Source: Flavobacteriaceae bacterium
Lineage (GTDB): Bacteria > Bacteroidota > Bacteroidia > Flavobacteriales > Flavobacteriaceae
Reading direction: 5' to 3'
Assembly: GCA_049598145.1 (NCBI GenBank)
Contig: JBMYNJ010000003.1
Coordinates: 1,489 to 65,488, forward strand
Length of the DNA stretch: 64,000 nt
Below, one piece after another: positions 2,081 through 32,838 of the stretch (the first letter of the stretch is position 1; each line of letters starts with the position of its first letter). Both the position numbers and the translations under genes were made by a program. The notes beneath the pieces were generated by a model. That model was not told where the DNA came from. It worked only from the letters and a program-made list of their open reading frames with translations, and searched no databases.

Positions 2081-3370
<1,290 letters not shown>

Positions 3371-3376
3371 TTAAAT

Positions 3377-4489
3377 TCAATTGGTTTTATAGGTTAATAA
3401 TAGTTCTTTAAACTGATCAAATAAGTAGGTGGCATCGTTTGTTCCGGGAGCTGCTTCAGGATGGTATTGAACTGAAAAACAGTTGTGTCCTTCCACCTCA
3501 ATTCCAGCGACGGTATCGTCGTTTAAGTGTAAGTGTGTGATCGTAACATTGGGATGCGCTTCCGTAGCTGCTTTATCGATCGCGAACCCGTGATTTTGCG
3601 AAGTGATTTCCCCTTTTTTCGTTTTAAGATTAATCACTGGATGGTTAATCCCCCGGTGTCCATTAAACATTTTATAAGTAGGAATACCGTTGGCCAAAGC
3701 AATGACTTGATGTCCTAAACAGATTCCAAAAAGAGGTTTTTTATCGGCCAAAATGGCTTGAGCTAAGGCAATAGGTTCTTTTAATGGCTCAGGGTCTCCC
3801 GGACCATTCGAAAGAAAATACCCATCAGGTTCCCAGGCTCGCATGGTTTCATAGGTGGTGTCATACGGAAATACTTTGACCTGAATCCCTCTTGCTGTAA
3901 TGTGATTTAGGATATTTTGCTTTACTCCTAAATCCAATACAGCTACTTTTAGAGGAGCATTAGGATTTCCCAGAGTGTAGGGCTCTTGGGTAGAGACTTT
4001 AGAAGCCAACTCTAGGCCTTCCATAGCGGGTTGTTGCTGCAATTGTTTGTGGATTTGATCTAATCGATCCAAATCGGTAGTAATCGCAGCATTCATAGCT
4101 CCATGATCACGAATATAGCGAACCAGGGCACGGGTGTCTACGTCAGAAATCGTCAGGCGTTCGGCCGCTTTTAAATAAGCGTCTAAGCTGTTGTCCGCTG
4201 CCGGACGTGAATACGGGTAGCTAAAATTTTTACAGACCAACCCGGCAATCTTAATTCCTTGGGACTGATCATCTTCACTAAACACGCCGTAGTTTCCAAT
4301 ATGAGCGTTCGTAGTAACCATGATCTGACCAAAATATGAGGGATCAGTGAAAATCTCTTGATATCCAGTCATTCCGGTGTTAAAACAAATCTCACCGAAG
4401 GAAGTTCCCACTAATCCGGTTGTTTTTCCTCGAAATTGGGTTCCATCAGCAAGCAGTAAAACGGCGGGTTTTCTTTCAGTATATTTCAT
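3377..4489 (-). CDS. carA: carbamoyl-phosphate synthase small (glutaminase) subunit
   Basis: 370 aa with the GICLGHQ class-I amidotransferase nucleophile elbow and a CPSase small-subunit N-domain. Confidence 0.93.
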   Translation of the reverse strand: MKYTERKPAVLLLADGTQFRGKTTGLVGTSFGEICFNTGMTGYQEIFTDPSYFGQIMVTTNAHIGNYGVFSEDDQSQGIKIAGLVCKNFSYPYSRPAADNSLDAYLKAAERLTISDVDTRALVRYIRDHGAMNAAITTDLDRLDQIHKQLQQQPAMEGLELASKVSTQEPYTLGNPNAPLKVAVLDLGVKQNILNHITARGIQVKVFPYDTTYETMRAWEPDGYFLSNGPGDPEPLKEPIALAQAILADKKPLFGICLGHQVIALANGIPTYKMFNGHRGINHPVINLKTKKGEITSQNHGFAIDKAATEAHPNVTITHLHLNDDTVAGIEVEGHNCFSVQYHPEAAPGTNDATYLFDQFKELLLTYKTN

Positions 4490-9983: not shown

Positions 9984-10508
9984 TTAACCGTTAAATACTT
10001 TATCCAATGAAATTCCACGTTGTTTGGCCACCATCCCCGGACTTCTGAGTTGAAGAAGCGCATCAAAGGTTGCTTTCACCACATTGTGAGGGTTTGAAGA
10101 ACCTTGAGACTTCGAGAGTACGTTATGCACCCCCACCGCTTCCAAAACCGAACGAACGGCTCCTCCGGCAATCACTCCAGTACCGGCAGAAGCAGGCTTT
10201 AAAAAAACACGAGCTCCACCAAACTTTCCTTTTTGTTCGTGGGGAAGCGTCCCATTTTGAATCGGGATGCGCACCAAGTTTTTCTTGGCATCTTCCACGG
10301 CTTTAGCGATCGCTTCAGAAACTTCTTTAGACTTTCCAAGACCTTGGCCTACCACTCCGTTTTCGTCTCCTACCACTACAATGGCAGAAAAACCGAATGC
10401 ACGACCTCCCTTGGTTACTTTAGTGACGCGTTGTACCCCCACCAAACGATCGTTGAGTTCTAAGCCTACAGGCTTTACAAGTTCTACATTAGGATAATTC
10501 TGATACAT
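9984..10508 (-). CDS. rpsE: 30S ribosomal protein S5
   Basis: 174 aa with the [21 protein letters not shown] motif. Confidence 0.96.
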
Positions 10509-13843: not shown

Positions 13844-14263
13844 TTAAGCATCGTAATCGCGAGCAATCACAAATTTAGTTCGTACGGGAAGTTTTTGAGC
13901 CGCGAGGCGCAAAGCTTCTTTTGCCACATCGATCGGTACACCGGCTACTTCAAACATGATACGACCCGGCTTTACCACGGCCACAAAGTATTCGGGTGCT
14001 CCTTTCCCTTTTCCCATCCGAACTTCCAAAGGCTTTTTGGTAATCGGCTTGTCTGGGAAAATTTTAATCCACAACTGTCCTTCCCTTTTCATATAACGAG
14101 TCGCTGCGACACGAGCGGCCTCGATCTGGCGGGAAGTAATAAACTTTGAATCTAATGCTTTGATCCCAAACATCCCGTTGGAAAGCTGATGCCCCCTTTG
14201 GGAAAGACCTTTCATACGGCCTTTCTGCGCTTTTCGGAATTTGGTTTTTCTAGGTTGTAACAT
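13844..14263 (-). CDS. rplP: 50S ribosomal protein L16
   Basis: [19 protein letters not shown]; 139 aa. Confidence 0.97.
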
Positions 14264-21065: not shown

Positions 21066-21440
21066 TTATTTTTTAGGGCGTTTAGCACCGTATTTCGAAC
21101 GTCGTTGTAAACGGCCTTCCACACCGGCGGTATCGAGGGCACCGCGAACAATGTGATAACGAACACCCGGGAGGTCTTTTACACGTCCGCCTCGGACCAA
21201 TACTATCGAGTGCTCTTGGAGGTTGTGTCCTTCTCCCGGAATATAGGCGTTGACTTCTTTCCCGTTGGTTAACCGCACCCGGGCGACTTTACGCATCGCA
21301 GAGTTTGGTTTTTTCGGGGTCGTCGTATATACTCGCGTACATACTCCTCGCCTTTGTGGACACGAATCCAAAGCAGCCGATTTACTCTTCTTGGCCATGG
21401 AAGCTCTTCCTTTTCTTACTAATTGTGCAATTGTTGGCAT
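21066..21440 (-). CDS. rpsL: 30S ribosomal protein S12
   Basis: The listed ORF is trimmed to [12 protein letters not shown] (ATG 21438-21440), giving 124 aa. It has the [16 protein letters not shown] motif. Confidence 0.95.
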
Positions 21441-21476
21441 ATATTCAATATATAATTCCCCATAATTATGGGCGTG

Positions 21477-21507
21477 CAAATGTAGCAATTAATTTTTGGG
21501 TTTCAAA
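21477..21507 (-). promoter_or_regulatory. candidate sigma-A promoter of the rpsL-to-rplQ superoperon (-7 TACATTTG, -33 TTTG)
   Basis: Plus-strand CAAATGTA at 21477-21484 is TACATTTG (TAnnTTTG) on the minus strand, 36 nt upstream of the rpsL ATG. A minus-strand TTTG lies at 21504-21507 with a 19-nt spacer, and it sits inside the palindrome GGGTTTCAAACCC at 21498-21510. Confidence 0.5.
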
Positions 21508-21770
21508 CCCCTCAGCAAACATTCATTCATCTTTTTTTTAGCCCGGGCTTTTAGGGGGGGAATTGCTCCCAAAAATCCCTCCAAAACCCCAAAGAAATTC
21601 ACTCGCTTTTTGCAATCCATTTTACACTATAATTATATAGTCAGTAAATATGTTAAATTGTTGTTTTTAAGGGGGTTATATTGGTACTTTTATAGGGTTT
21701 CATTTGCAAAAGATTAACAGTTTCCACATCTTCGGATCCTCATTTTTATTATTAAACGAACCCAAATCTT

Positions 21771-22406
21771 ATGCTTATGAAAGTACACTTCTATTTTTGG
21801 GGCTGCTTATTGCTCTGTATGAGTCAATTGGCGATTGCCCAAATCCGCACAGGACAGGTGACCGACGAAAACAACCTCCCCCTCCCCGGGGCCACCGTTA
21901 TCGTCGAAGGCACTACCCGAGGAACCACCACCGATTTTGACGGTAACTTCCAGATCGAAGCCGCCGCAGGCGATGTCCGTGCTGGAATTTTAGGTTATCA
22001 AGGCGCTCGCCTTCGAAATATGGGAAAATATCCCGATATCAATGGTTGGGACAATATCCCGATTATTCGCTACGAAGAAGTGATCCTGAACTATGCCGAA
22101 GCTTTAGCCGAATCTGGAAATAGTAGTGCTGCCCTTGAACAGTTAACTGCACTGACCAGTAAACGAAACGCCACCGCGTACACCAGCGCAACCAAGTCGA
22201 ATATTCTTCTGGAACGTCGAAAAGAGTTGATTTTTGAAGGCTTTCGTTGGGACGATCTTATGCGAACCGGCAGTGCTATCGAGTCGTATGGGACTCTGAT
22301 GGAACTTTTGGCAACCTACAATTATCCCAACAATGTGTTTGCTTACCCTATTCCGGCAGCGGAACTCAATGCAAATTCAAACATAGAACAAAACGAAGGC
22401 TATTAA
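21771..22406 (+). pseudogene. chimeric remnant: SusC-like N-terminus (signal peptide plus carboxypeptidase-regulatory-like domain) fused in frame to a SusD-like C-terminus
   Basis: Residues 1-69 read MLMKVHFYFWGCLLLCMSQLAIAQIRTGQVTDENNLPLPGATVIVEGTTRGTTTDFDGNFQIEAAAGDV, paralleling the starts of the SusC genes at 22609 and 28040. From IPIIRYEEVILNYAEALAESGN... to ILLERRKELIFEGFRWDDLMRTG...YPIPAAELNANSNIEQNEGY the sequence is a typical SusD/RagB C-terminus. No plug or barrel is present. Confidence 0.8.
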
Positions 22407-22465
22407 ACAAAAACCCCAACTATACATTAATGATGAACAAGTGCCCTGTTTACTCCAGGGAAAAA

Positions 22466-22494
22466 GCCCCCGCACAAGCGGGGGTTTTTATTTT
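22466..22494 (+). terminator. rho-independent terminator after the chimeric ORF
   Basis: A CCCCCGC / GCGGGGG stem with an ACAA loop, followed by TTTTTATTTT. Confidence 0.7.
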
Positions 22495-22560
22495 AACAAA
22501 GATTAACATGGGTAAGTTCAGGGAATAAAGGGATTTTAATATTTATTAACATAATTTTAA

Positions 22561-22568
22561 TATATTTG
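22561..22568 (+). promoter_or_regulatory. candidate -7 promoter box (TATATTTG) for the first intact susC-like gene
   Basis: An exact TAnnTTTG 40 nt upstream of the ATG at 22609, flanked by two copies of ATTTATTAAC. Confidence 0.45.
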
Positions 22569-22608
22569 GAAACTTTATTATTTATTAACTAATTATTAAT
22601 CGAAACAA

Positions 22609-25600
22609 ATGAAAAGCGTAATGCAAGTTTTGCTGTTAAGTGTTTTTTGCCTTTCTATGGCTCTGGCACAAAAAACAGTAACCGGTATGGTACTCGACGA
22701 TGCAGGGATGCCTCTGCCTGGAGCTACCGTACTTGAACAAGGAACTTCCAATGGGGTGACTACAGACTTTGATGGAAACTATTCTATCGAAGTAGCTGAA
22801 GGTGCTATTTTGGAAGTGAGCTTCGTGGGCTACACTACTGCATCTGAGCAAGTAGGAGCTGGCGACACTCTCAACTTTACTTTGACTTCTGACAACGAAC
22901 TCGACGAGATCGTAGTTTCTGCTCTTGGGGTTTCTCGAGATCAAAAGTCTATTGGTTATGCCCAACAAACCGTTGTTGGAGACCGATTAGTACAGGCAAA
23001 AGATACCGACCTGAACGTGTCTCTTACCGGTAAAGTTGCTGGAGTACAGATGATTGGTGGATCTTCTTCTACTTTCGATGCAGGTTTCTTACGTCTTCGT
23101 GGTGAAACTGGTGTCCTCTATGTAGTGGATGGAGTTAAATTATTCTCACAGACCGATGTTAACACCGACAACATTGCTAATCTTACCGTACTTAAAGGTG
23201 CTGCAGCAACTGCACTTTACGGGGTAGATGCAAGAAACGGGGTTGTATTAATTACAACTAAATCCGCAGAAAAAGGACAATCGAACTTCTCGATCGACCA
23301 TACAACGCAGATGACTAACGTTTCTATCTTACCGAACTATCAAGACGAGTACGGTGGTGGATACTACCAACAATGGGATACTTTTGCCTACAACGCTGCT
23401 ACTGATCCAGTAGAATGGGCGGCCTTCAACGGTCAAAGAATTCCTTACTATGCAGCTGACGAGTCTTGGGGACCTCGTTTAGATGGTACGCTTGTACGTC
23501 ATTGGGACAGCTGGATTCCTGGACACCCAGAATTTGGACAACTACGTCCTTGGGAAGCCAACCCAGATAACGTTCGTGATTTCTACCAAACAGCCATTTC
23601 TAACAACACTTCATTGGTGTGGGCTAAAGGTGGAGATGATTACAGCATCCGTACAGCCATCCGTAACTTAAAGCAAACTTTAGTAATGCCAAACTCTGGT
23701 CGTGACCAAGTAGATGTTAACGTTCGTGGATCCTTCAATCTAACTGATAAAATTGAATTATATGCCGGAATGAATTACCAATTCCGTGAAACACGTAACA
23801 GCCCAACCAATGGTTACGGTGGATTAGGATCCAACTTCAACCAATGGTGGCAGCGCCAATTGGATATGGACCGCTTAAAGAGCAATTATTTCTTCGAAGG
23901 AAACTACTACAGCTGGAACTCTCGTTCTGCACGTAACTCACGTCCTCTGTACTGGGATGCTCCGCACTTCGGTCCTGACAACAACCTTAACATCCAACGC
24001 AAAGATGTCATCTTTGGAAATGTTGGAGCAAACTTCGACTTAGGTCCTGGTCTTAAAGCCAACTTAGAGCTTCGTCGTCGTTTCAATAACTATGTTTCTA
24101 ATGGTCGTACGGCTTTTGGAGGTCTTGAACTCCCTGCTTTTTCTGAAGCGTCTTCTCGATACATCCAAAATGAGCTTTGGGGATTCATTTCCTATGACAA
24201 GCGTTTTGCTGGAAACATCGATATGAACTTAAAAGTAGGTTACCAGATGCAACAGAACCGCTCCAATGCAATTTCTGCTTCTACTGTTGGTGGATTATCG
24301 GTTCCTAACTTCTACAGTATTGCAACTTCTGTAGACCGTCCTAACTACTCTTCTACCTTGACGCAAGATAAATTGCAGTCGAACTTTGCAGCAGTATCTT
24401 TAGGATACAGCAGCATGTTGTACTTGGATGCTTCCTATCGTTTAGACTGGGGATCTACAGCTAATGCAGATGATAACCGCTTAGAGACACTAGGTCTTTC
24501 TGCGAGTTTCGTATTCGACAAATTAGTTGACTTTGGTGGATTGCTTTCTTTCGGAAAATTACGTGGAGGTTTCTCTCAAGCGCCGATCTTCCCGGGAGCA
24601 TACCAAACAACTACAGTATATAACGTAGGAAACCCTTACGGAACAAACGCTTCTTTCGCTGTTCCGAACACCCAAGCCAATCCTGAACTTTTAGGAGGTA
24701 CACGTGACGAAATGGAATTAGGTCTCGAAATGCGTTTCCTAAAAGACCGTATCGGACTTGATGTAACATACTTCGACCGTAAGGATAAGCAACTTCCTGT
24801 TGCGATTCCTGTAGCAGCTTCTTCTGGATTTTCTGGACTTTCCATTAACTCGGGTCAGACGTCTTCTAATGGGATCGAACTTACTTTAAGTGGTACCCCA
24901 ATTCAAACAGAAAACTTGGTCTGGGATCTTTCCGTAAACTTTGCTACACTCGAGAAAAAGCAAGACTTTATTGCTGAAGGAATCGATACGCAGATTTTGG
25001 ACTCTTGGGTTAGCTGGGGTGGATTGCAATTACAAAACCGTGTTGGTGAAGAGTACGGAACCTTTGTAGGTCGTCGTCGTGCTACTGATGCGAACGGGAA
25101 CTATATCCTTACAAGCTCTGGACGTTATACCTTCGATACAGGAGAAGTTCTTGGAAGCTTACTTCCAGACTTTACCGGAGGTATCGTTTCAAACTTAGCA
25201 TACAAAAACTGGTACATGAACCTTGGACTTGACTTTCAAGGCGGTGGTCGATTCTTCACTACCTCCAACATGTTCTCTTACTACTCTGGATTACATGAAA
25301 ACACTGTTGGAAACAACGATCTTGGAAACCCACTACGTGACGATCCAGCCAATGGCGGTGGTGTTCGTCGTCAAGGGGTAGATGCAAACGGAAACACAGT
25401 GGATGTATATATGGAATCTCAAACTTGGGGAGGTAGCTACTTCGGTGTTCACGACGAGTGGTTATACGATGCAACCTACCTAAAGTTACGTCAGATGCGT
25501 ATCGGATACCAATTACCACAAGATATGATCGCCAACACGCCATTTACAGGTGTTGACATCTCCCTTATTGGAAACAACCTATTATTGTTGTATTCTAAAG

Positions 25601-25734
25601 TAGGTCACGGTGGTGGTTTAGATCCTTCAGAAATTGAAGGTAGCGGATCCATTGCAGGTTCTTACCGTCACGTAGAAGGAGGTCAGTTGCCTCCAGCACG
25701 TACCATTGGACTAAACGTGAAACTTAACTTCTAA
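22609..25734 (+). CDS. SusC/RagA-family TonB-dependent outer-membrane transporter
   Basis: 1041 aa with a signal peptide ending in ALAQ. It has the carboxypeptidase-regulatory-like domain (TVTGMVLDDAGMPLPGATVLEQGTSNGVTTDFDGNYSI), a plug (VLKGAAATALYGVDARNGVVLITTK), and a barrel ending in F. Confidence 0.93.
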   Translation: MKSVMQVLLLSVFCLSMALAQKTVTGMVLDDAGMPLPGATVLEQGTSNGVTTDFDGNYSIEVAEGAILEVSFVGYTTASEQVGAGDTLNFTLTSDNELDEIVVSALGVSRDQKSIGYAQQTVVGDRLVQAKDTDLNVSLTGKVAGVQMIGGSSSTFDAGFLRLRGETGVLYVVDGVKLFSQTDVNTDNIANLTVLKGAAATALYGVDARNGVVLITTKSAEKGQSNFSIDHTTQMTNVSILPNYQDEYGGGYYQQWDTFAYNAATDPVEWAAFNGQRIPYYAADESWGPRLDGTLVRHWDSWIPGHPEFGQLRPWEANPDNVRDFYQTAISNNTSLVWAKGGDDYSIRTAIRNLKQTLVMPNSGRDQVDVNVRGSFNLTDKIELYAGMNYQFRETRNSPTNGYGGLGSNFNQWWQRQLDMDRLKSNYFFEGNYYSWNSRSARNSRPLYWDAPHFGPDNNLNIQRKDVIFGNVGANFDLGPGLKANLELRRRFNNYVSNGRTAFGGLELPAFSEASSRYIQNELWGFISYDKRFAGNIDMNLKVGYQMQQNRSNAISASTVGGLSVPNFYSIATSVDRPNYSSTLTQDKLQSNFAAVSLGYSSMLYLDASYRLDWGSTANADDNRLETLGLSASFVFDKLVDFGGLLSFGKLRGGFSQAPIFPGAYQTTTVYNVGNPYGTNASFAVPNTQANPELLGGTRDEMELGLEMRFLKDRIGLDVTYFDRKDKQLPVAIPVAASSGFSGLSINSGQTSSNGIELTLSGTPIQTENLVWDLSVNFATLEKKQDFIAEGIDTQILDSWVSWGGLQLQNRVGEEYGTFVGRRRATDANGNYILTSSGRYTFDTGEVLGSLLPDFTGGIVSNLAYKNWYMNLGLDFQGGGRFFTTSNMFSYYSGLHENTVGNNDLGNPLRDDPANGGGVRRQGVDANGNTVDVYMESQTWGGSYFGVHDEWLYDATYLKLRQMRIGYQLPQDMIANTPFTGVDISLIGNNLLLLYSKVGHGGGLDPSEIEGSGSIAGSYRHVEGGQLPPARTIGLNVKLNF

Positions 25735-25746
25735 TATCAACGAATC

Positions 25747-27198
25747 ATGAAAAAATATTTCAATTATTTAGGAGGATTGGTGTTAGCGATGGGCCTTGCG
25801 GTCTCTTGTGACACTGTAGATTTCGGGGATGAAAACCTCAACCCGAACCAGCCCTCTACTGCCTCTACGGCGGCACTACTCACCAATGCGATTCGTACCA
25901 TTCCTTCCCACGTAAGTGAAGTGAATAGCAACCTTATGGTGCAGTATATTTCCGAGATCACTTATACTGAGGATTCTCGTTACGAACAATTCGAATGGTC
26001 TTATGACGGCTGGTACTCTGGGCCGCTAAAAGACCTTCAAGAAATCATCGATTTGAATTCTCAGGCTCCCGAAAATTATACTGGAGGGGGAACAACTGCA
26101 AATCAGATCGCTGTAGCTCGTATTTTACAAACCTACTATTTCCACTACTTAACAGACCGTTGGGGTGCAGTTCCTTACGATCGTTCAGAAATCCTCAGAG
26201 GAGCTCAAAACTTGAAGCCTGCCTTTGCACAACAAGAGGATATCTACTTAGGTAGCGGTGGTCTATTTGATGAAATCGATGCGGCTCTTGCTCAAATCGA
26301 CGACTCGGGTAGCGTTAATGGCGATATCCTTTTCGACGGAAATATGGCGCATTGGAGAAAGTTTGCTAACACCCTTAAAATGGTAATGGCTTTACGTATC
26401 TCTCAGCGTAACGCCAGTGTAGCGCAAACCAAATTCATCGAGGCACACAATGCCGGGGTCATTGGAGCTGGTGAAAACATGCACTATCCTTACCTTACTG
26501 AGGATAACAATGACAACCCCTGGCAAGACCGTTTCCAAACACGGGAAGACTACGCAGTTTCTAACGTGCTTATCGATATGCTTAATGGAGCAAACAACAC
26601 TGACCCAAGTGATGACGATCCTCGTTTAGCTCGATTTGCTGAAACCAACCAAGATGGAGACTATGTTGGATGTCCATATGGAGTAGCCAACCCTAATGTT
26701 CTTCAGTCTGAAATCTCTTTCATCACTGACGATATCATCTATGATGGTACGGGAGCCGGTGGAATGATGTTTAGCTACGCTCAAATCGCTTTCGGTTATG
26801 CAGAAGCTGCTCACCGAGGATGGAATGTTCCCGGAGATGCTCCTACTTGGTATAACATCGGAATTCAAGCATCTATGGCCCAATGGGGAGTTGATGCTGC
26901 CGCGGCTACTGCATACGCAAACGCGCACCCCATAAGCCCAACTGCTCCTATGGAGTCTATCGCTTATGAGAAATATGTGGCTCTTTATATGCAAGGTGCA
27001 GAAGCATGGGCTGAGTGGAGACGTTTAGATCACCCTCAACTAGCTCCCGCAGCAGATGCGCTTTCTGGATCAGGAATTCCTGTACGTAACGGGTACTCTG
27101 CCCTTACACGTGAGCTAAACGCTGACAACTACAATGCAGCGGTTCAAGCGCAAGGAACAGATAACCAGGATACACGACTTTGGTGGGATGTAAACTAA
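25747..27198 (+). CDS. SusD-like (SusD-like_2 type) nutrient-binding lipoprotein
   Basis: 483 aa with the lipobox LAVSC. It starts 12 nt after its SusC partner and has the N-terminal NLNPNQPSTASTAALLTNAIR pattern typical of the SusD-like_2 subfamily. Confidence 0.8.
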   Translation: MKKYFNYLGGLVLAMGLAVSCDTVDFGDENLNPNQPSTASTAALLTNAIRTIPSHVSEVNSNLMVQYISEITYTEDSRYEQFEWSYDGWYSGPLKDLQEIIDLNSQAPENYTGGGTTANQIAVARILQTYYFHYLTDRWGAVPYDRSEILRGAQNLKPAFAQQEDIYLGSGGLFDEIDAALAQIDDSGSVNGDILFDGNMAHWRKFANTLKMVMALRISQRNASVAQTKFIEAHNAGVIGAGENMHYPYLTEDNNDNPWQDRFQTREDYAVSNVLIDMLNGANNTDPSDDDPRLARFAETNQDGDYVGCPYGVANPNVLQSEISFITDDIIYDGTGAGGMMFSYAQIAFGYAEAAHRGWNVPGDAPTWYNIGIQASMAQWGVDAAAATAYANAHPISPTAPMESIAYEKYVALYMQGAEAWAEWRRLDHPQLAPAADALSGSGIPVRNGYSALTRELNADNYNAAVQAQGTDNQDTRLWWDVN

Positions 27199-27254: not shown

Positions 27255-27262
27255 AACTATAT

Positions 27263-27958
27263 ATGATGAAAAAACTATTATTATTCTGCTTAACAGGATG
27301 GATATGCGCTGTCAATGCTCAAGTATTATCGGTCAGTGAAACGGATATGTTTCGTTCTGGAAATATGTTCCTATCCGAGAACAACAGAAAGTATTCCGAT
27401 ATGGAAGGCACCCCCTATTGGAAAGATACCTTCGAAGCTGGTGAAATTCTTTTCGTCAGCGAACAAATTTTTGAAGGGAAAATCCGCTACGATATAGCCG
27501 CCCAAGTCTTTGAGTTTAAAAACGAAAATGGACAAGTGTTCCAACTAGAGCCTGCCGAAATTTTGCAAATTGCCTATGGAGGAACCCAATTTATCCCAGC
27601 CCAGAAACTCCGTATTGACGCGATCAAAAAACCTCCTGTATACTTTCAGGTTTTGGTGACACCCGCCCCCTATGGACTATTGGCTAGTCATACCAAAAAG
27701 GTGGTCATGCCTCGAAGAGATGGAATTGCTGTACCTGGACAACCCCTCGACAGCCAGAAAAATAAGTGGGAAGATGAGATCGCTTATTATTTAGTAGTCG
27801 ATAAACGAGTAATGAATTTACCTAAAAGTGTGAAAAAATTAAACGCAATTGATGCTTTTCAAGATTTTGACCTAAAAACAATCGTTAAAAAAAATAAGAT
27901 TAGTGTAAAAAAAGAAGCAGATTTAATTCGATTACTGAAAATACTAAACGAACTATAG
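27263..27958 (+). CDS. secreted hypothetical protein, 231 aa
   Basis: The signal peptide is MMKKLLLFCLTGWICAVNAQ. I recognise no domain. The C-terminus is Lys-rich. Confidence 0.6.
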   Translation: MMKKLLLFCLTGWICAVNAQVLSVSETDMFRSGNMFLSENNRKYSDMEGTPYWKDTFEAGEILFVSEQIFEGKIRYDIAAQVFEFKNENGQVFQLEPAEILQIAYGGTQFIPAQKLRIDAIKKPPVYFQVLVTPAPYGLLASHTKKVVMPRRDGIAVPGQPLDSQKNKWEDEIAYYLVVDKRVMNLPKSVKKLNAIDAFQDFDLKTIVKKNKISVKKEADLIRLLKILNEL

Positions 27959-28039
27959 ATCTTTTTAGAATTGTATTAATTTTTAGTTATATTGGATGCC
28001 CAATTTATTAACTGTTGTTTAACAAAAAACAAAAAAAGT

Positions 28040-31000
28040 ATGAAAAGCTTGCAAAAAGTAACATTATTGTTCTTTTTGGGGATTGGTCTAACCTTTGCTC
28101 AAAAGACAATAACGGGGACAGTGACAGACGATCAAGGTCTGCCATTACCTGGAGCTACGGTACTCGTTCAAGGAAGTTCCAATGGAGTGGCCACTGATTT
28201 TGATGGGAACTATTCCATACAAGCCAACGAAGGAGATGTCCTTGAAATCAGTTTCATAGGGTATAAAACCGTCACGCTTCCAGTGGGTGCAGAGGATCAA
28301 CTCAATGCAAGCCTTCAAGCAGCGAATGAGCTGGAGGAGGTTGTCGTATCGGGATATTCTACTGCTACAAAAGAATCATTTACCGGAACCCAAAAGACAA
28401 TCCAAGCCGAAGTGTTAGAGGCCAAAAACGTGGCAAACGTTACTCAAGCACTCGCAGGGGAATCGGCTGGAGTAAATGTAATCAACACATCGGGACAGCC
28501 CGGAACGGCATCTTCCATCCGTATTAGAGGGATTGGAACCGTTAACGGGAGTCGCGGACCCCTATTAGTCTTGGATGGGGTGCCTTATGATGGGCCTTCA
28601 AGTGCCATTAACCCCGCAGACATTGAGTCGACCACTGTATTGAAAGATGCATCTGCAACGGCGATTTATGGTGCTCGTGGGGCTAACGGGGTAATCTTGA
28701 TTAACACCAAAAAAGGAGGAAAAGGAACTACACAAATCAATGTAGACACCAAAACGGGAGTCAACTTCCGTCTATTACCGCGCTACAGCACGATTGAGTC
28801 TCCTGAAACTTTTGTCGGATTGGTATGGGAAAATCTCTTTAACAGAGACTGGGCCTCTAATGGAACAGATGCCAATGGCAATTTAGATGCAGCTTATGCG
28901 CCTAGCGCAACCGCTTATGCAAATGCCAATTTGTTTGTAGGAGGAACTGGAATCGATGCACGTTATAATATGTGGAGCAGTCCAGCTGCCGATCAATTAA
29001 TCGATCCATCCACTCGTACAGTAGTGCCTTCAGCTCAGCGTTTGTATACGCCTGAAGATTGGGACGACTATGCTTTCCAAAACTCTATTCGTCAGGAAAC
29101 GAATCTAAGTATCAGCGGTGGTGATCAAAAAACCCAATACTTTACTTCTTTCGGATACTTGGAGGATGTAGGTTATGCTGTAAATACAGACTTTAAACGA
29201 TACTCTACTCGTTTAAATCTAACTTCTAAACTCAACGATTGGTTAACAGGTTCTATGCGAATCGGATATTCCTACGGTGATTTTAACGACCCTGGGCAGT
29301 CTTCGGACTCTGGAAGTGTTTTCTGGTTTACCGATAACATTCCTGCGATTTTTCCGCTCTTTAAGCGTTACGACGAAACCGTAAACCCAATCGTTCCACA
29401 AGCCACTCCATACGATGATGCAATCTATGGAGGATATCAGTATGATTATGGCCTTGGGCGTAGCTTTGGAGCCCTAACAAACTCTATTGCCGATGCCAAT
29501 TTAAGTACGCGTAATACAATTACACACGCCTTAAATACCAATACGTCATTTAAAGTTGAGTTGGCTGAGGGATTAAAATTCGAAACAAGTTTAGGTACTA
29601 CCTACTCTAATGCAGCACGTAACTATCGCAACGATCCTTTCTACGGACCTAATGCGGGACAAAACGGTTATATCTCAAAATCCAAAACGGAGGTCTTAAC
29701 CACCAACCTATTGGCCCTACTTCGTTACTCACGCAACTTTGGAGCCCACTCGGTGAGTGCCTTTGCTGCACATGAAGCCTACAGTTATTCTCTATCCTTT
29801 ATGAATGCTAATAAGTTCAATCTTGTAATTCCGGATGGAGTAGAATTAAACAACGCTGTAGTCGCCGGTTCCCCAGCAACTTCCTATACCAACGAGTTCC
29901 GTTTGGAAAGTTTCTTCGGGCAAGTGGACTATGGCTATAACGACAAGTATTTCTTTAATGGAACGCTTCGTCGAGACGGATCTTCTCGTTTCGTTAGAGA
30001 AAAGTGGGATAACTTCGGAGCGATTGGATTGGCCTGGTTAGTCTCTAAAGAAGACTTTATGGCGAGCCAAAATATCTTTAGTTCCTTAAAATTTAAAGCC
30101 TCTTACGGACTCATCGGAGAACAAGGTGGGGTAGGTTTTTATCCGGGATACGACTTATTTGAAATGCAAAACCTAAACGACGAAATCTCTTTGTCTTTTT
30201 CAACCAAAGGAAATCCTGATCTCACTTGGGAGGTTTCCAAGCAATTCCAAACAGGAATCGAGTTTGAAATTGGAAATGTTTTAGAAGGTACAATCGATTA
30301 CTACGTTAAAAATACAGACGATCTCCTTTTTGACCGCCGTGTAGGGCCTTCTTTAGGATATGCATTCTTAAGGGTAAACGACGGAGCTTTACGGAATCAA
30401 GGATTGGAGTTTGATTTAACGGCTCACTTAATTCAAAAACAAAATTTCTTCCTGGACTTTACCGTGAATGGAGAAATGATCAAAAACGAAATGACTCGTT
30501 TACCGATCGATCCCGCTACTGGAGAGCAGAAAGTCATCGACATCAGTGGTTCCTTTGGACGTGCTGTCGGGTATTCTATCTTCGACTTTTACATTCGTGA
30601 ATTTGCAGGCGTAGACCCCGATTCTGGAGTACCATTATACAATCAATACTACTACGATGAAAATAGTAACGGTGCTTTAGATGCTGGTGAAGGAATCGAA
30701 TCGCTCTTTGAGTATCAAGATGAATTTCCGGATCGTGCCATCTCAATGGAAGAAACAAAAACCTATGCATCTGCTACAAAGAAATTTGTAGGCAAGTCGC
30801 CCTTCCCTAAAGTACGAGGTGCTTTCCGCTTAAATGCAGGATTTGGAAACTTTGACCTGAGTGCGCAGTTCCTTTACAGTATTGGCGGATATGCCTATGA
30901 CTCTGCATACGCCGGCCTAATGCACAACCGTGCAGCAGGAGGTAACAACTACCACACCGATATTCTTAATCGCTGGCAAGCGCCGGGAGACGCTACAGAC

Positions 31001-31294
31001 GTGCCCCGTTTGGATTCAAATTTAACTTCAAACGTAAACAGCACTTCTACGCGTTTCTTAACAAAAGCCGATTACCTCAACCTAAACAACGTTCGTTTGG
31101 GATACAGTTTCACGAAAGACCAATTAAACAGTAGTTTCCTTAAAGGAATTGATCTTTGGGTATCTGGTGATAATCTAATGCTCCTCTCTGCTCGTGACGG
31201 GTTTAACCCCGCAACTGCTGAAACAGGAGGATCGGACACTTACCGCTATCAACCCCTTTCTACGGTAACTAGTGGTGTACGTATTAAATTCTAA
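28040..31294 (+). CDS. SusC/RagA-family TonB-dependent outer-membrane transporter
   Basis: The listed ORF is trimmed to MKSLQKVTLLFFLGIGLTFAQ (ATG 28040). It has TITGTVTDDQGLPLPGATVLVQGSSNGVATDFDGNYSI, the plug VLKDASATAIYGARGANGVILINTKKG, and ends in RIKF. Confidence 0.93.
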   Translation: MKSLQKVTLLFFLGIGLTFAQKTITGTVTDDQGLPLPGATVLVQGSSNGVATDFDGNYSIQANEGDVLEISFIGYKTVTLPVGAEDQLNASLQAANELEEVVVSGYSTATKESFTGTQKTIQAEVLEAKNVANVTQALAGESAGVNVINTSGQPGTASSIRIRGIGTVNGSRGPLLVLDGVPYDGPSSAINPADIESTTVLKDASATAIYGARGANGVILINTKKGGKGTTQINVDTKTGVNFRLLPRYSTIESPETFVGLVWENLFNRDWASNGTDANGNLDAAYAPSATAYANANLFVGGTGIDARYNMWSSPAADQLIDPSTRTVVPSAQRLYTPEDWDDYAFQNSIRQETNLSISGGDQKTQYFTSFGYLEDVGYAVNTDFKRYSTRLNLTSKLNDWLTGSMRIGYSYGDFNDPGQSSDSGSVFWFTDNIPAIFPLFKRYDETVNPIVPQATPYDDAIYGGYQYDYGLGRSFGALTNSIADANLSTRNTITHALNTNTSFKVELAEGLKFETSLGTTYSNAARNYRNDPFYGPNAGQNGYISKSKTEVLTTNLLALLRYSRNFGAHSVSAFAAHEAYSYSLSFMNANKFNLVIPDGVELNNAVVAGSPATSYTNEFRLESFFGQVDYGYNDKYFFNGTLRRDGSSRFVREKWDNFGAIGLAWLVSKEDFMASQNIFSSLKFKASYGLIGEQGGVGFYPGYDLFEMQNLNDEISLSFSTKGNPDLTWEVSKQFQTGIEFEIGNVLEGTIDYYVKNTDDLLFDRRVGPSLGYAFLRVNDGALRNQGLEFDLTAHLIQKQNFFLDFTVNGEMIKNEMTRLPIDPATGEQKVIDISGSFGRAVGYSIFDFYIREFAGVDPDSGVPLYNQYYYDENSNGALDAGEGIESLFEYQDEFPDRAISMEETKTYASATKKFVGKSPFPKVRGAFRLNAGFGNFDLSAQFLYSIGGYAYDSAYAGLMHNRAAGGNNYHTDILNRWQAPGDATDVPRLDSNLTSNVNSTSTRFLTKADYLNLNNVRLGYSFTKDQLNSSFLKGIDLWVSGDNLMLLSARDGFNPATAETGGSDTYRYQPLSTVTSGVRIKF

Positions 31295-31296
31295 AA

Positions 31297-32838
31297 ATGA
31301 AGAATATGAAAAATATTAAAACCCTTTACGTAGCACTAAGTGTCGCAGTTACACTTATCGCATGTGAGAAAGATTTTCTTGAAACACGCCCTACTGAGTT
31401 AGTCTCTGCTGAGGATATTCAGGAAGCATCTGTGTTGAATCCAGGTTTGCAAGCTGCAAATGTTGGAGGTATCTATGCCACGATGTATCAGGCAGGTTCC
31501 GGAGGAACAAGTGGTCACGATGATTTTGGACACAAAGGATATGATATCTATGGAGATATGTTGTCTGGAGACATGGTATTGGGAGCAATTATCTATGGAT
31601 GGTACCGTAGCATTACAGAATTCCAAACCACGACAGACTTTACTTTTACGGATAATTATCAAGTTTGGCGCTTCTACTACCGTGTCATTTTCGCAGCAAA
31701 CATCGTCATCGATGGGTTGACTTCTGAAGATCAGCCCGTACCTGCAAATGCAGATGGACGTCACTATTTAGGCCAGGCCAAAGCCATGCGTGCATGGGCA
31801 TATTTCTACTTAGCTCAATATTTCCAAGAAAATCCTGGAAACCAGAGTGAAGAAATTTTACCCATCTACACCAATACTCAAGATCCCAACCAGGGATTGA
31901 GTTCAGCCTCTGACGTTTATGATCTAATCTTTTCCGATTTAGAAGATTCAACTGCTGGAGCAATTACGCTTTTAAGCGATTTTACTCGTTCGGCCAAGAG
32001 TGAAGTAGATGTAAACATTGCTCGCGGAATTGCTGCCTATGCTCACGGAGCTCGAGGAACTGCAGACGATTGGACTGCCGTACGCACCCTTACGGATGCG
32101 ATCTTAGCCGATGTCGGGGGGAATTTAATGACTGCATCTGAAGTAGTTTACGATTCCGCTACTGGCACTGGAGGAGGATTCAACGACGCCAGCATCCCCG
32201 GATGGATGTGGGGTGTGGATCTTACCAATGATAGCGATCTAGGACTAATCTCTTGGTGGGGAGTAATGGATGTCTTTACCTACAGCTATGCTTGGGCTGG
32301 AGACGGGAAATCCATTGACCTCGGACTACACGCTCAAATCGCTGCAAACGATGTGCGATTGGGACAATTCCAAGGCGATATTTACGGACGTCCCGGGATG
32401 TTTTTACCTTATGGGAAGTTCTTCCACCCCAACCGTACGATTGGTGGACAACGAGCCATCGATGCCGACTATGTATACATGCGGGTAGCAGAAATGCATT
32501 TACTCAATGCAGAGGCTCGTGCCAATACAGGGGATGATGCTGGTGCACAACAGAAATTAACGCAATTAATTACTGCGCGTACCTCAGACGGCACAGACCC
32601 CTACAACGTAGGTGCTCTATCTGGACAGGCTTTAAAAGATGCCATTTATCTCCAAACGAGAATTGAGCTTTGGGGAGAAGGAAAGTCCTATTTAGCTATG
32701 AAGCGTAACCGTGCAACGATTACTCGTGGATCAAACCACTTATCATTTGCTGGAGATCAGTTTAGTTTTGACGATGACAAGTTGACTTTTGAAATTCCAG
32801 AATTGGAAATTTTAAACAACCCGGAGATCAGTAACTAA
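31297..32838 (+). CDS. SusD/RagB-family nutrient-binding lipoprotein
   Basis: 513 aa with the lipobox LIAC, starting 2 nt after its SusC partner. The C-terminal pattern is YVYMRVAEMHLLNAEA ... IYLQTRIELWGEGKSYLAMKR. Confidence 0.88.
   Translation: MKNMKNIKTLYVALSVAVTLIACEKDFLETRPTELVSAEDIQEASVLNPGLQAANVGGIYATMYQAGSGGTSGHDDFGHKGYDIYGDMLSGDMVLGAIIYGWYRSITEFQTTTDFTFTDNYQVWRFYYRVIFAANIVIDGLTSEDQPVPANADGRHYLGQAKAMRAWAYFYLAQYFQENPGNQSEEILPIYTNTQDPNQGLSSASDVYDLIFSDLEDSTAGAITLLSDFTRSAKSEVDVNIARGIAAYAHGARGTADDWTAVRTLTDAILADVGGNLMTASEVVYDSATGTGGGFNDASIPGWMWGVDLTNDSDLGLISWWGVMDVFTYSYAWAGDGKSIDLGLHAQIAANDVRLGQFQGDIYGRPGMFLPYGKFFHPNRTIGGQRAIDADYVYMRVAEMHLLNAEARANTGDDAGAQQKLTQLITARTSDGTDPYNVGALSGQALKDAIYLQTRIELWGEGKSYLAMKRNRATITRGSNHLSFAGDQFSFDDDKLTFEIPELEILNNPEISN

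Follow-up and report, generated by a model that had tools for sequence, protein, structure and literature searches.

Whether a short open reading frame (ORF) that begins like a SusC and ends like a SusD is the relic of a lost gene pair or a new secreted protein is the question raised by positions 21771-22406 of the window, i.e., the whole stretch of 64,000 nucleotides from a Flavobacteriaceae bacterium that was analysed here. The SusC/RagA TonB-dependent transporter and the SusD/RagB lipoprotein form the core pair of polysaccharide and peptide utilisation loci in Bacteroidota, and the original prediction, made from the letters of the window, took this ORF for the in-frame scar of a deletion of about 4 kb in one such pair and left the choice between a pseudogene and a neo-fusion. 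The analysis indicates that the 211-aa ORF is very probably a relic of a 3,822-bp deletion in the first SusCD pair in an uncultured marine Flavobacteriaceae population, and that this scar of a recent, polymorphic, microhomology-mediated deletion is almost certainly a pseudogene.

According to the ORF list and its translation, the + strand at 21771-22406 carries an ATG-initiated ORF of 211 aa plus a TAA stop. Pfam matched two partial domains: residues 27-77 align with positions 2-56 of the 88 in the CarbopepD_reg_2/CarboxypepD_reg profile, a truncated match (E = 1.8e-12), and residues 91-211 with positions 151-297 of the 297 in the SusD_RagB profile (E = 1.2e-21). The 211-aa ORF gave no match for the Plug, the TonB-dependent barrel or the SusD N-terminal domain. 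The predicted in-frame fusion of a SusC N-terminus to a SusD C-terminus, and the predicted loss of the plug, the barrel and most of SusD, were thus both borne out. Comparison with metagenome contigs that carry the undeleted allele (L001-L004) delimits the parts of the locus as follows:

21489..21770, + strand: original rpsL-susC intergenic region, presumed to carry the susC promoter and 5' UTR; one mismatch to the undeleted allele (L001 9849)
21771..22406, + strand: chimeric relic ORF, SusC 1-69 in frame to SusD 318-459 (ORF list, Pfam and base-by-base match to L001)
21771..21977, + strand: SusC-derived part, codons 1-69, with no difference from codons 1-69 of the susC 5' ORF in L001-L004 (protein P0023)
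21968..21978, + strand: deletion junction, the single kept copy of the 11-bp direct repeat AGGCGATGTCC (comparison with L001)
21979..22403, + strand: SusD-derived part, chimera codons 70-211, i.e., SusD 318-459 (L001 14031-14455, Pfam)
22467..22494, + strand: intrinsic-terminator-like hairpin of susD, CCCCCGC-ACAA-GCGGGGG, with T-run (read from the sequence)
22609-25734 and 25747-27198, + strand: intact SusC (1,041 aa)/SusD-like_2 (483 aa) pair (Pfam; same genes in L001 and L002)
27992-31294 and 31297-32838, + strand: third pair, intact, SusC (about 1,084-1,100 aa)/SusD (513 aa) (Pfam; L001 gene list)

The SusC-derived part consists of the signal peptide (MLMKVHFYFWGCLLLCMSQLAIA, followed by Q, as read from the sequence) and the first approximately 56 of the 88 positions of the carboxypeptidase-regulatory-like profile; the TonB box, the plug and the barrel are gone. 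The junction lies at chimera codons 67-70 (GDV/R), spanned by the residues ...AAAGDVRAGILGYQ..., and the SusD-derived part, which differs from L001 14031-14455 at a single position (22269, G versus A, Gly versus Ser), represents the C-terminal half of SusD_RagB and has neither the lipoprotein signal nor the TPR-like region of the N-terminus. The SusD part therefore starts at residue 70 and not, as had been estimated, at about residue 95, and the junction falls just to the left of the interval between about 21978 and 22054 in which it had been placed. The predicted terminator of the ORF was identified as a G+C-rich hairpin (22467-22484) followed by TTTTTATTTT, 60 nt past the chimera stop; the terminator scan reports this hairpin on the minus strand only, and the T-run on the + strand was taken directly from the sequence. 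The same hairpin element is found 3' of the intact susD in L001.

The genes rpsL, rpsG and fusA and the ribosomal-protein cluster lie upstream of the ORF and are encoded on the opposite strand; downstream, the two intact pairs follow on the + strand, so that the ORF is indeed the first in a same-strand row of three SusCD units. A 231-aa ORF between these pairs (27263-27958) had no Pfam match, and its position is conserved in relatives; between this ORF and the SusD gene at 25747-27198 there is a 1-bp indel relative to L001, at about position 27255. The G+C content of the window is 43.7%, and the related contigs are from marine metagenomes. The downstream 483-aa SusD has a counterpart in a relative (P0116, from the same cluster at 90% identity) that is encoded on a 1.78-Mb contig, which suggests a small genome.

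As the original prediction had proposed, alignment with close relatives located both the ancestral pair and the breakpoints. A homology search identified a protein of 118 aa (P0023) whose first 69 residues are identical to those of the chimera and which, past residue 69, has the ordinary sequence of a SusC N-terminal domain. The gene for P0023 is present in at least four contigs assembled from different metagenome samples (L001-L004). The gene order on these contigs is rpsL on the minus strand, the 118-aa ORF, a 902-aa ORF with Plug and barrel and a 459-aa SusD with SusD-like_3 and SusD_RagB domains, followed by the same 1,041-aa SusC, 483-aa SusD and 231-aa ORF as in the window. L001-L004 thus carry the full pair (susC, 1,024 codons; susD, 459 aa) at the locus where the window has the chimera, in agreement with the predicted in-frame deletion of an ancestral pair. 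Comparison of the window with L001 showed 4 mismatches in 10,208 nt of left flank and 3 mismatches in about 5,290 nt of right flank up to the 1-bp intergenic indel, i.e., about 7 SNPs per 15.5 kb of flank (approximately 99.95% identity), with both flanks colinear and no further rearrangement.

In L001, AGGCGATGTCC is found twice, at 10198-10208 within susC codons 66-70 (A-G-D-V-L, gcA GGC GAT GTC Ctt) and at 14020-14030 within susD codons 314-318 (E-G-D-V-R, gaA GGC GAT GTC Cgt). These copies are 3,822 bp apart, and the window has one copy, at 21968-21978, with susC sequence to its left and susD sequence to its right. Absent from the window are exactly 3,822 bp, or 1,274 codons, which comprise 955 susC codons (70-1024), the susC stop, a 3-nt spacer and susD codons 1-317; the predicted loss of about 4 kb, with about 1000 codons of susC and about 350 of susD, was therefore close.

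The long allele can be regarded as ancestral since it encodes a complete, family-typical SusC and SusD and since intact orthologues are found elsewhere. The undeleted pair is also carried by a further contig (L106), intact orthologous SusDs of about 457-459 aa are encoded on other marine contigs, and SusD was intact at 75 of the 78 assessable GTDB loci among the matches listed (80 loci, two of which run off the contig end), a scan in which the query was an alignment of the chimera and its relatives and the best match among those listed had 62% identity. The intact ancestral state of the relic is thus documented in L001-L004, in L106 and in orthologues. In the JGI metagenome scan, an exact 34-mer from the junction side had no match, and a degenerate scan of the same metagenomes returned only three SusD orthologues, which were intact and more distant.

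The breakpoints have only the 11-mer in common and no other homology. The AGGCGATGTCC pair is one of about seven exact direct repeats of at least 11 nt in the 4.7-kb region, which is approximately the number expected by chance, and the other matches between the two sites in the repeat search were at chance level, with 13 nt or fewer. Pfam analysis of the neighbouring genes, which are ribosomal, SusCD and housekeeping genes, found no recombinase, integrase, invertase or transposase. In the ancestral allele the lost segment is flanked by the two repeats, of which the derived allele has exactly one, and there is no extended homology, mobile element or site-specific recombinase; one retained copy of a short direct repeat without other homology is the classical signature of a microhomology-mediated deletion. 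Because only the 11-mer is shared, the repeat count is at chance level and no recombinase or transposase is nearby, the comparison of the two alleles argues that the mechanism was illegitimate recombination at an 11-bp microhomology. Of the two routes named in the original prediction, illegitimate recombination therefore stands and paralogue-mediated recombination is ruled out, the breakpoints being located in non-homologous susC and susD sequence.

A spontaneous deletion of 3,822 bp would thus have collapsed the first of the three tandem SusC/SusD pairs, joining the two copies of AGGCGATGTCC and keeping one, in a recombinase-independent process such as replication slippage or single-strand annealing. 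The join would have put the promoter region and start codon of susC, together with its signal peptide and 69 N-terminal residues, before the last 142 residues of SusD and the susD terminator, in frame because both repeat copies are in the same codon phase.

The pair seems to have been inactive before it was deleted. In four of four undeleted contigs (L001-L004), susC has an in-frame TAG at codon 119 (...EVTG-stop-AVQLG..., L001 10355-10357), which splits the gene into the 118-aa and 902-aa ORFs; the 902-codon downstream part has no signal peptide of its own. These contigs are four independent assemblies and are identical across the entire susC-susD region. Recoding of this TAG is unsupported, since TAG is the stop of 5 of the 44 long ORFs in the window and is thus an ordinary stop here. 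The remainder of susC and the entire susD are otherwise open in the undeleted allele, and comparison of L001 with L106 showed 34 synonymous and 13 non-synonymous codon differences in the 3' part of susC and 10 synonymous and 2 non-synonymous differences in susD; because these genes are otherwise open and the differences mostly synonymous, inactivation appears to have been recent, and the undeleted pair looks like a very young pseudogene. Of the 65 differences between these haplotypes, 34 are found in a 137-nt block in the susC barrel region (L106 1461-1597, L001 12475-12611), which probably represents either a tract of recombination or a surface loop that varies. Taking into consideration that the TAG was present in all undeleted contigs found, the SusCD pair was probably dead before the deletion. 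The TAG site falls inside the segment that is missing from the window, and the direct ancestor of the window likely carried it, since the flanks of the window are near-identical to L001.

A second copy of the deleted allele was found in an independent run (L005, Logan SRR22672371), which encodes a protein of 211 aa (P0001) that is 98% identical to the chimera and has the same junction. Alignment of L005 1-1238 with window 21366-22610 showed 5-12% divergence in the susC part and both intergenic regions, up to the junction; 17 of 69 codons differ in the susC part, compared to 2 of 430 nt in the susD part. The two ORFs differ by 14 synonymous and 5 non-synonymous codon changes, from an event too recent for selection to be gauged, and these differences probably predate the deletion. 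Haplotype-specific variants of L005 are located 9, 24 and 27 nt left of the junction, and, when L106 is included as a second undeleted haplotype, every one of the four combinations of variable site and deletion is seen (a four-gamete pattern), which fits either a deletion that recurred between these repeats or a crossover no more than about 15-25 nt away from the junction. On either reading, the window and L005 ORFs are strain-level variants and no evidence of long-term conservation.

To compare codon phases, all maximal exact susC-by-susD repeats were enumerated. In L001 (10001-14458), 21 of 31 repeats of at least 9 nt (68%) and 3 of 4 repeats of at least 11 nt are in the same codon phase; for repeats of at least 9 nt, nucleotide shuffles gave 33% and codon shuffles about 61%. 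Across 70 intact SusCD pairs from 70 Bacteroidota genomes (L022-L101), 63-70% of repeats were in the same phase at thresholds from at least 8 to at least 11 nt. In-frame fusion is therefore the majority outcome from codon and amino-acid usage alone, and no selection for an open frame is needed to account for the chimera. Preservation of the reading frame, which the original prediction had singled out, is thus what these proportions lead one to expect, and microhomology deletions between same-strand genes should give in-frame fusions at approximately double the naive rate of one-third.

The chimera may plausibly be transcribed, translated and exported by Sec, since the susC upstream region, start codon and signal peptide are intact; the ORF is also uninterrupted in both the window and L005 and keeps its terminator. 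The domains that define the two families were looked for in the product. A signal peptide is present, and of the SusC N-terminal extension domain there is only the portion at profile positions 2-56 of 88, the remaining strands (LLFSYVGYSDQRITV...) being found in P0023 of the undeleted allele. Plug (PF07715) and TonB-dependent beta-barrel (PF00593) are absent from the 211-aa ORF and both present in the 902-aa ORF of the undeleted allele. The lipobox cysteine and the N-terminal TPR-like half (PF14322, SusD-like_3) are likewise absent from the chimera, the undeleted SusD having ...LFVLNGGCS... and a PF14322 match, and SusD_RagB (PF07980) is incomplete, with profile positions 151-297 of 297 only. 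Because these defining domains were looked for and found absent, the chimera is not a member of the SusC or SusD family in any functional sense. In the SusC fragment the last third of the beta-sandwich is missing, and the SusD fragment, cut from a single globular domain, has neither the lipobox nor the N-terminal half of that domain. AlphaFold2 gave a mean pLDDT of 52.5 and a pTM of 0.34; as the alignment was shallow and mixed, with 18 sequences, the low pLDDT speaks only weakly against folding. No beta-sandwich was predicted for the SusC fragment from this alignment, and only residues 101-150 were moderately confident. The product would be exported by Sec, would misfold as both domains are cut mid-fold and would then be degraded, and the non-functional relic could be expected to erode further, as has happened in a related lineage.

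At least seven other in-frame SusC-N::SusD-C ORFs were found in marine metagenomes, namely P0002 (341 aa), P0006-9 (323 aa), P0018 (218 aa), P0019 (258 aa), P0045 (174 aa), P0043 and P0050; the search query was itself a chimera, so that in-frame chimeras were favoured among the matches. Junctions differ between them, as does the extent to which each domain is left. Their genomic contexts are:

L009 8001-8972: in-frame chimera downstream of rpsL, next to intact SusCD pairs and peptidases
L016 8001-8777: in-frame chimera downstream of rpsL, next to intact SusCD pairs and peptidases
L013 8001-8657: in-frame chimera between two SusCD pairs
L006 3292-4317 and L019 8001-8525: orphan remnants between ornithine-decarboxylase-family (odc) and NMO-family genes

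P0002 and P0045 occupy the same odc/NMO site and neither can be derived from the other. An out-of-frame scar was also found (L102 7561-8468), in which a 147-aa SusC-N ORF overlaps a 155-aa SusD-C ORF by 4 nt; this scar lies between prfA and purM and was seen on six Tara contigs. Moreover, a locus that is 98% identical to that of P0002 (L107) has undergone a further 302-nt deletion between 7-nt CCTCCAA repeats (L006 about 3223-3524), which takes the upstream region, the start codon, the entire SusC part and the junction of the P0002-type chimera; L107 would thus represent a second step of erosion by the same mechanism as the first deletion. Truncated SusDs among the 78 assessable GTDB loci listed were only three, all in representative genomes:

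L040 10124-10474: lone 116-aa SusD C-terminal remnant after an intact pair, in Gelidibacter
L057 9028-10465 and L069 5934-10402: frameshifted susC/susD in metagenome-assembled genomes

The frameshifts in L057 and L069 could possibly be sequencing errors, one of the assemblies being long-read. Taken together, the sequences point to repeated, stepwise erosion of SusCD pairs in marine Flavobacteriaceae through independent events, and not to a protein family. A literature search for SusC::SusD deletion chimeras found no description of them; a paper on phage resistance in Flavobacterium describes small indels within a cluster of the SusD family, a link too indirect for use here (PMC12781566).

These remnants bear on the reading of the in-frame product as a neo-functional fusion, in which a secreted mini-protein, e.g., a periplasmic or surface decoy or a regulator, would be retained and similar chimeras in other flavobacteria would share one functional class. 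This reading could draw on the signal peptide and terminator that were kept, on the ORF being intact in the second haplotype, on the at least seven further in-frame ORFs and on the loose synteny of some of their sites, which lie close to rpsL in the window, L009 and L016 and at odc/NMO in L006 and L019. However, every chimera differs in junction and domain content, so that no architecture is conserved; each of the two domains is interrupted inside its fold and the AlphaFold structure is not confident; in-frame joins are expected in 63-70% of cases without selection; and the count of in-frame chimeras reflects a query that preferentially retrieves them, against which stand the out-of-frame scar in L102 and the relative of P0002 that has lost its SusC part and start codon. 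Persistence of the ORF is uninformative on selection, as the deletion is too recent (flanks approximately 99.95% identical). The conserved stand-alone family that would have spoken for a new protein was not found, the only other copy (L005) being a strain variant and the look-alikes having different junctions. A neo-functional fusion is therefore very unlikely, and of the two fates offered in the original prediction the pseudogene is favoured by the domains cut mid-fold, the prior nonsense codon in susC and the expected frame. There is likewise only a slim chance that the in-frame chimeras are more than neutral scars and that some are kept, or that the junction is a deletion hotspot favoured by selection. 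If so, phase-biased deletions would routinely create exported chimeric mini-proteins, and those kept could be decoys for SusD-recognising phages or predators, or periplasmic modulators; a hotspot would account for the identical junction on two haplotypes through selection to shed a dead or phage-targeted SusC.

Two further explanations place the origin of the junction elsewhere, and both are highly improbable. The join of susC 5' to susD 3' sequence could have been made by an assembler and not in the cell, given that the window is apparently metagenome-derived, its EF-G having its closest named matches (93-95% identity) in metagenome-assembled Flavobacteriaceae genomes, and that undeleted alleles co-exist in public data. 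Nevertheless, an 11-bp shared repeat is far below assembler k-mer sizes and the flanks are colinear with L001 with no other rearrangement; an assembly or binning artefact is excluded because the independent run L005 has the same junction on a diverged haplotype, linked to haplotype-specific variants. Alternatively, a recombinase could excise or invert the segment as a phase-variation switch, as in the SusC/SusD inversion systems of Bacteroides; inversions of SusC/SusD genes are described in Bacteroidota (PMC9881135), and the occurrence of one junction on two backgrounds might point to a site that is preferred. The repeats are direct, though, not inverted, are only 11 bp long and resemble the chance repeats of which the region has many; the neighbouring genes include no recombinase or invertase; and excision of a non-replicating 3.8-kb segment is irreversible and would make no switch. 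The evidence thus continues to favour a microhomology-mediated deletion that left a pseudogene.

Read in this way, the ORF is by itself an everyday instance of gene decay, and its annotation should be that of a pseudogene and not of a functionally unknown protein. It provides a clean natural example of genome reduction, in which both alleles are available at approximately 99.95% flank identity and the responsible repeat is identified, and in which a series becomes visible, with the nonsense mutation probably first, then the deletion, and the next erosion step in a related lineage. Moreover, with approximately two-thirds of microhomologies between same-strand coding regions in phase, deletion scars are biased towards in-frame chimeric ORFs, and such ORFs will inflate the counts in metagenome catalogues of "novel fusion proteins" and of short "SusD-like" or "carboxypeptidase-regulatory domain" proteins.

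Compared with a SusC/SusD pair, the relic keeps the promoter region, the signal peptide, a partial N-terminal domain, the SusD C-terminus and the terminator, and it adjoins two intact pairs; unlike such a pair, it is without the TonB box, plug and 22-strand barrel and without the SusD lipobox and N-terminal TPR-like half, and from this composition it would be unable to work as a transporter or as its lid. It resembles P0002, P0007, P0018, P0019, P0045 and the out-of-frame L102 scar in that a SusC signal peptide and N-domain are joined to a C-terminal piece of SusD, and some of these other remnants, like the relic in the window, adjoin intact SusCD pairs or sit downstream of rpsL; their junctions, lengths (174-341 aa) and lineages differ from those of the relic. 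Programmed, gene-altering DNA inversions that affect SusC/SusD genes are described in Bacteroidota (PMC9881135). Unlike this shufflon-type inversion, the relic has direct repeats, no nearby recombinase and an irreversible event behind it.

Spontaneous deletions between short direct repeats, through illegitimate recombination or replication slippage, were classically mapped in E. coli lacI, and deletional bias underlies bacterial genome reduction. The relic resembles such cases in that 11-bp exact repeats bound the lost segment, one copy is left and there is no other homology, mobile element or recombinase, and in that the loss allele is polymorphic in a natural population whose genome is apparently small. 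The kind of event is thus a known one, a deletion scar between short direct repeats, with no mechanistic difference found and nothing mechanistically new. What this locus adds to the classical deletions is that both alleles were caught at near-identical sequence, together with the evidence for a codon-phase bias.
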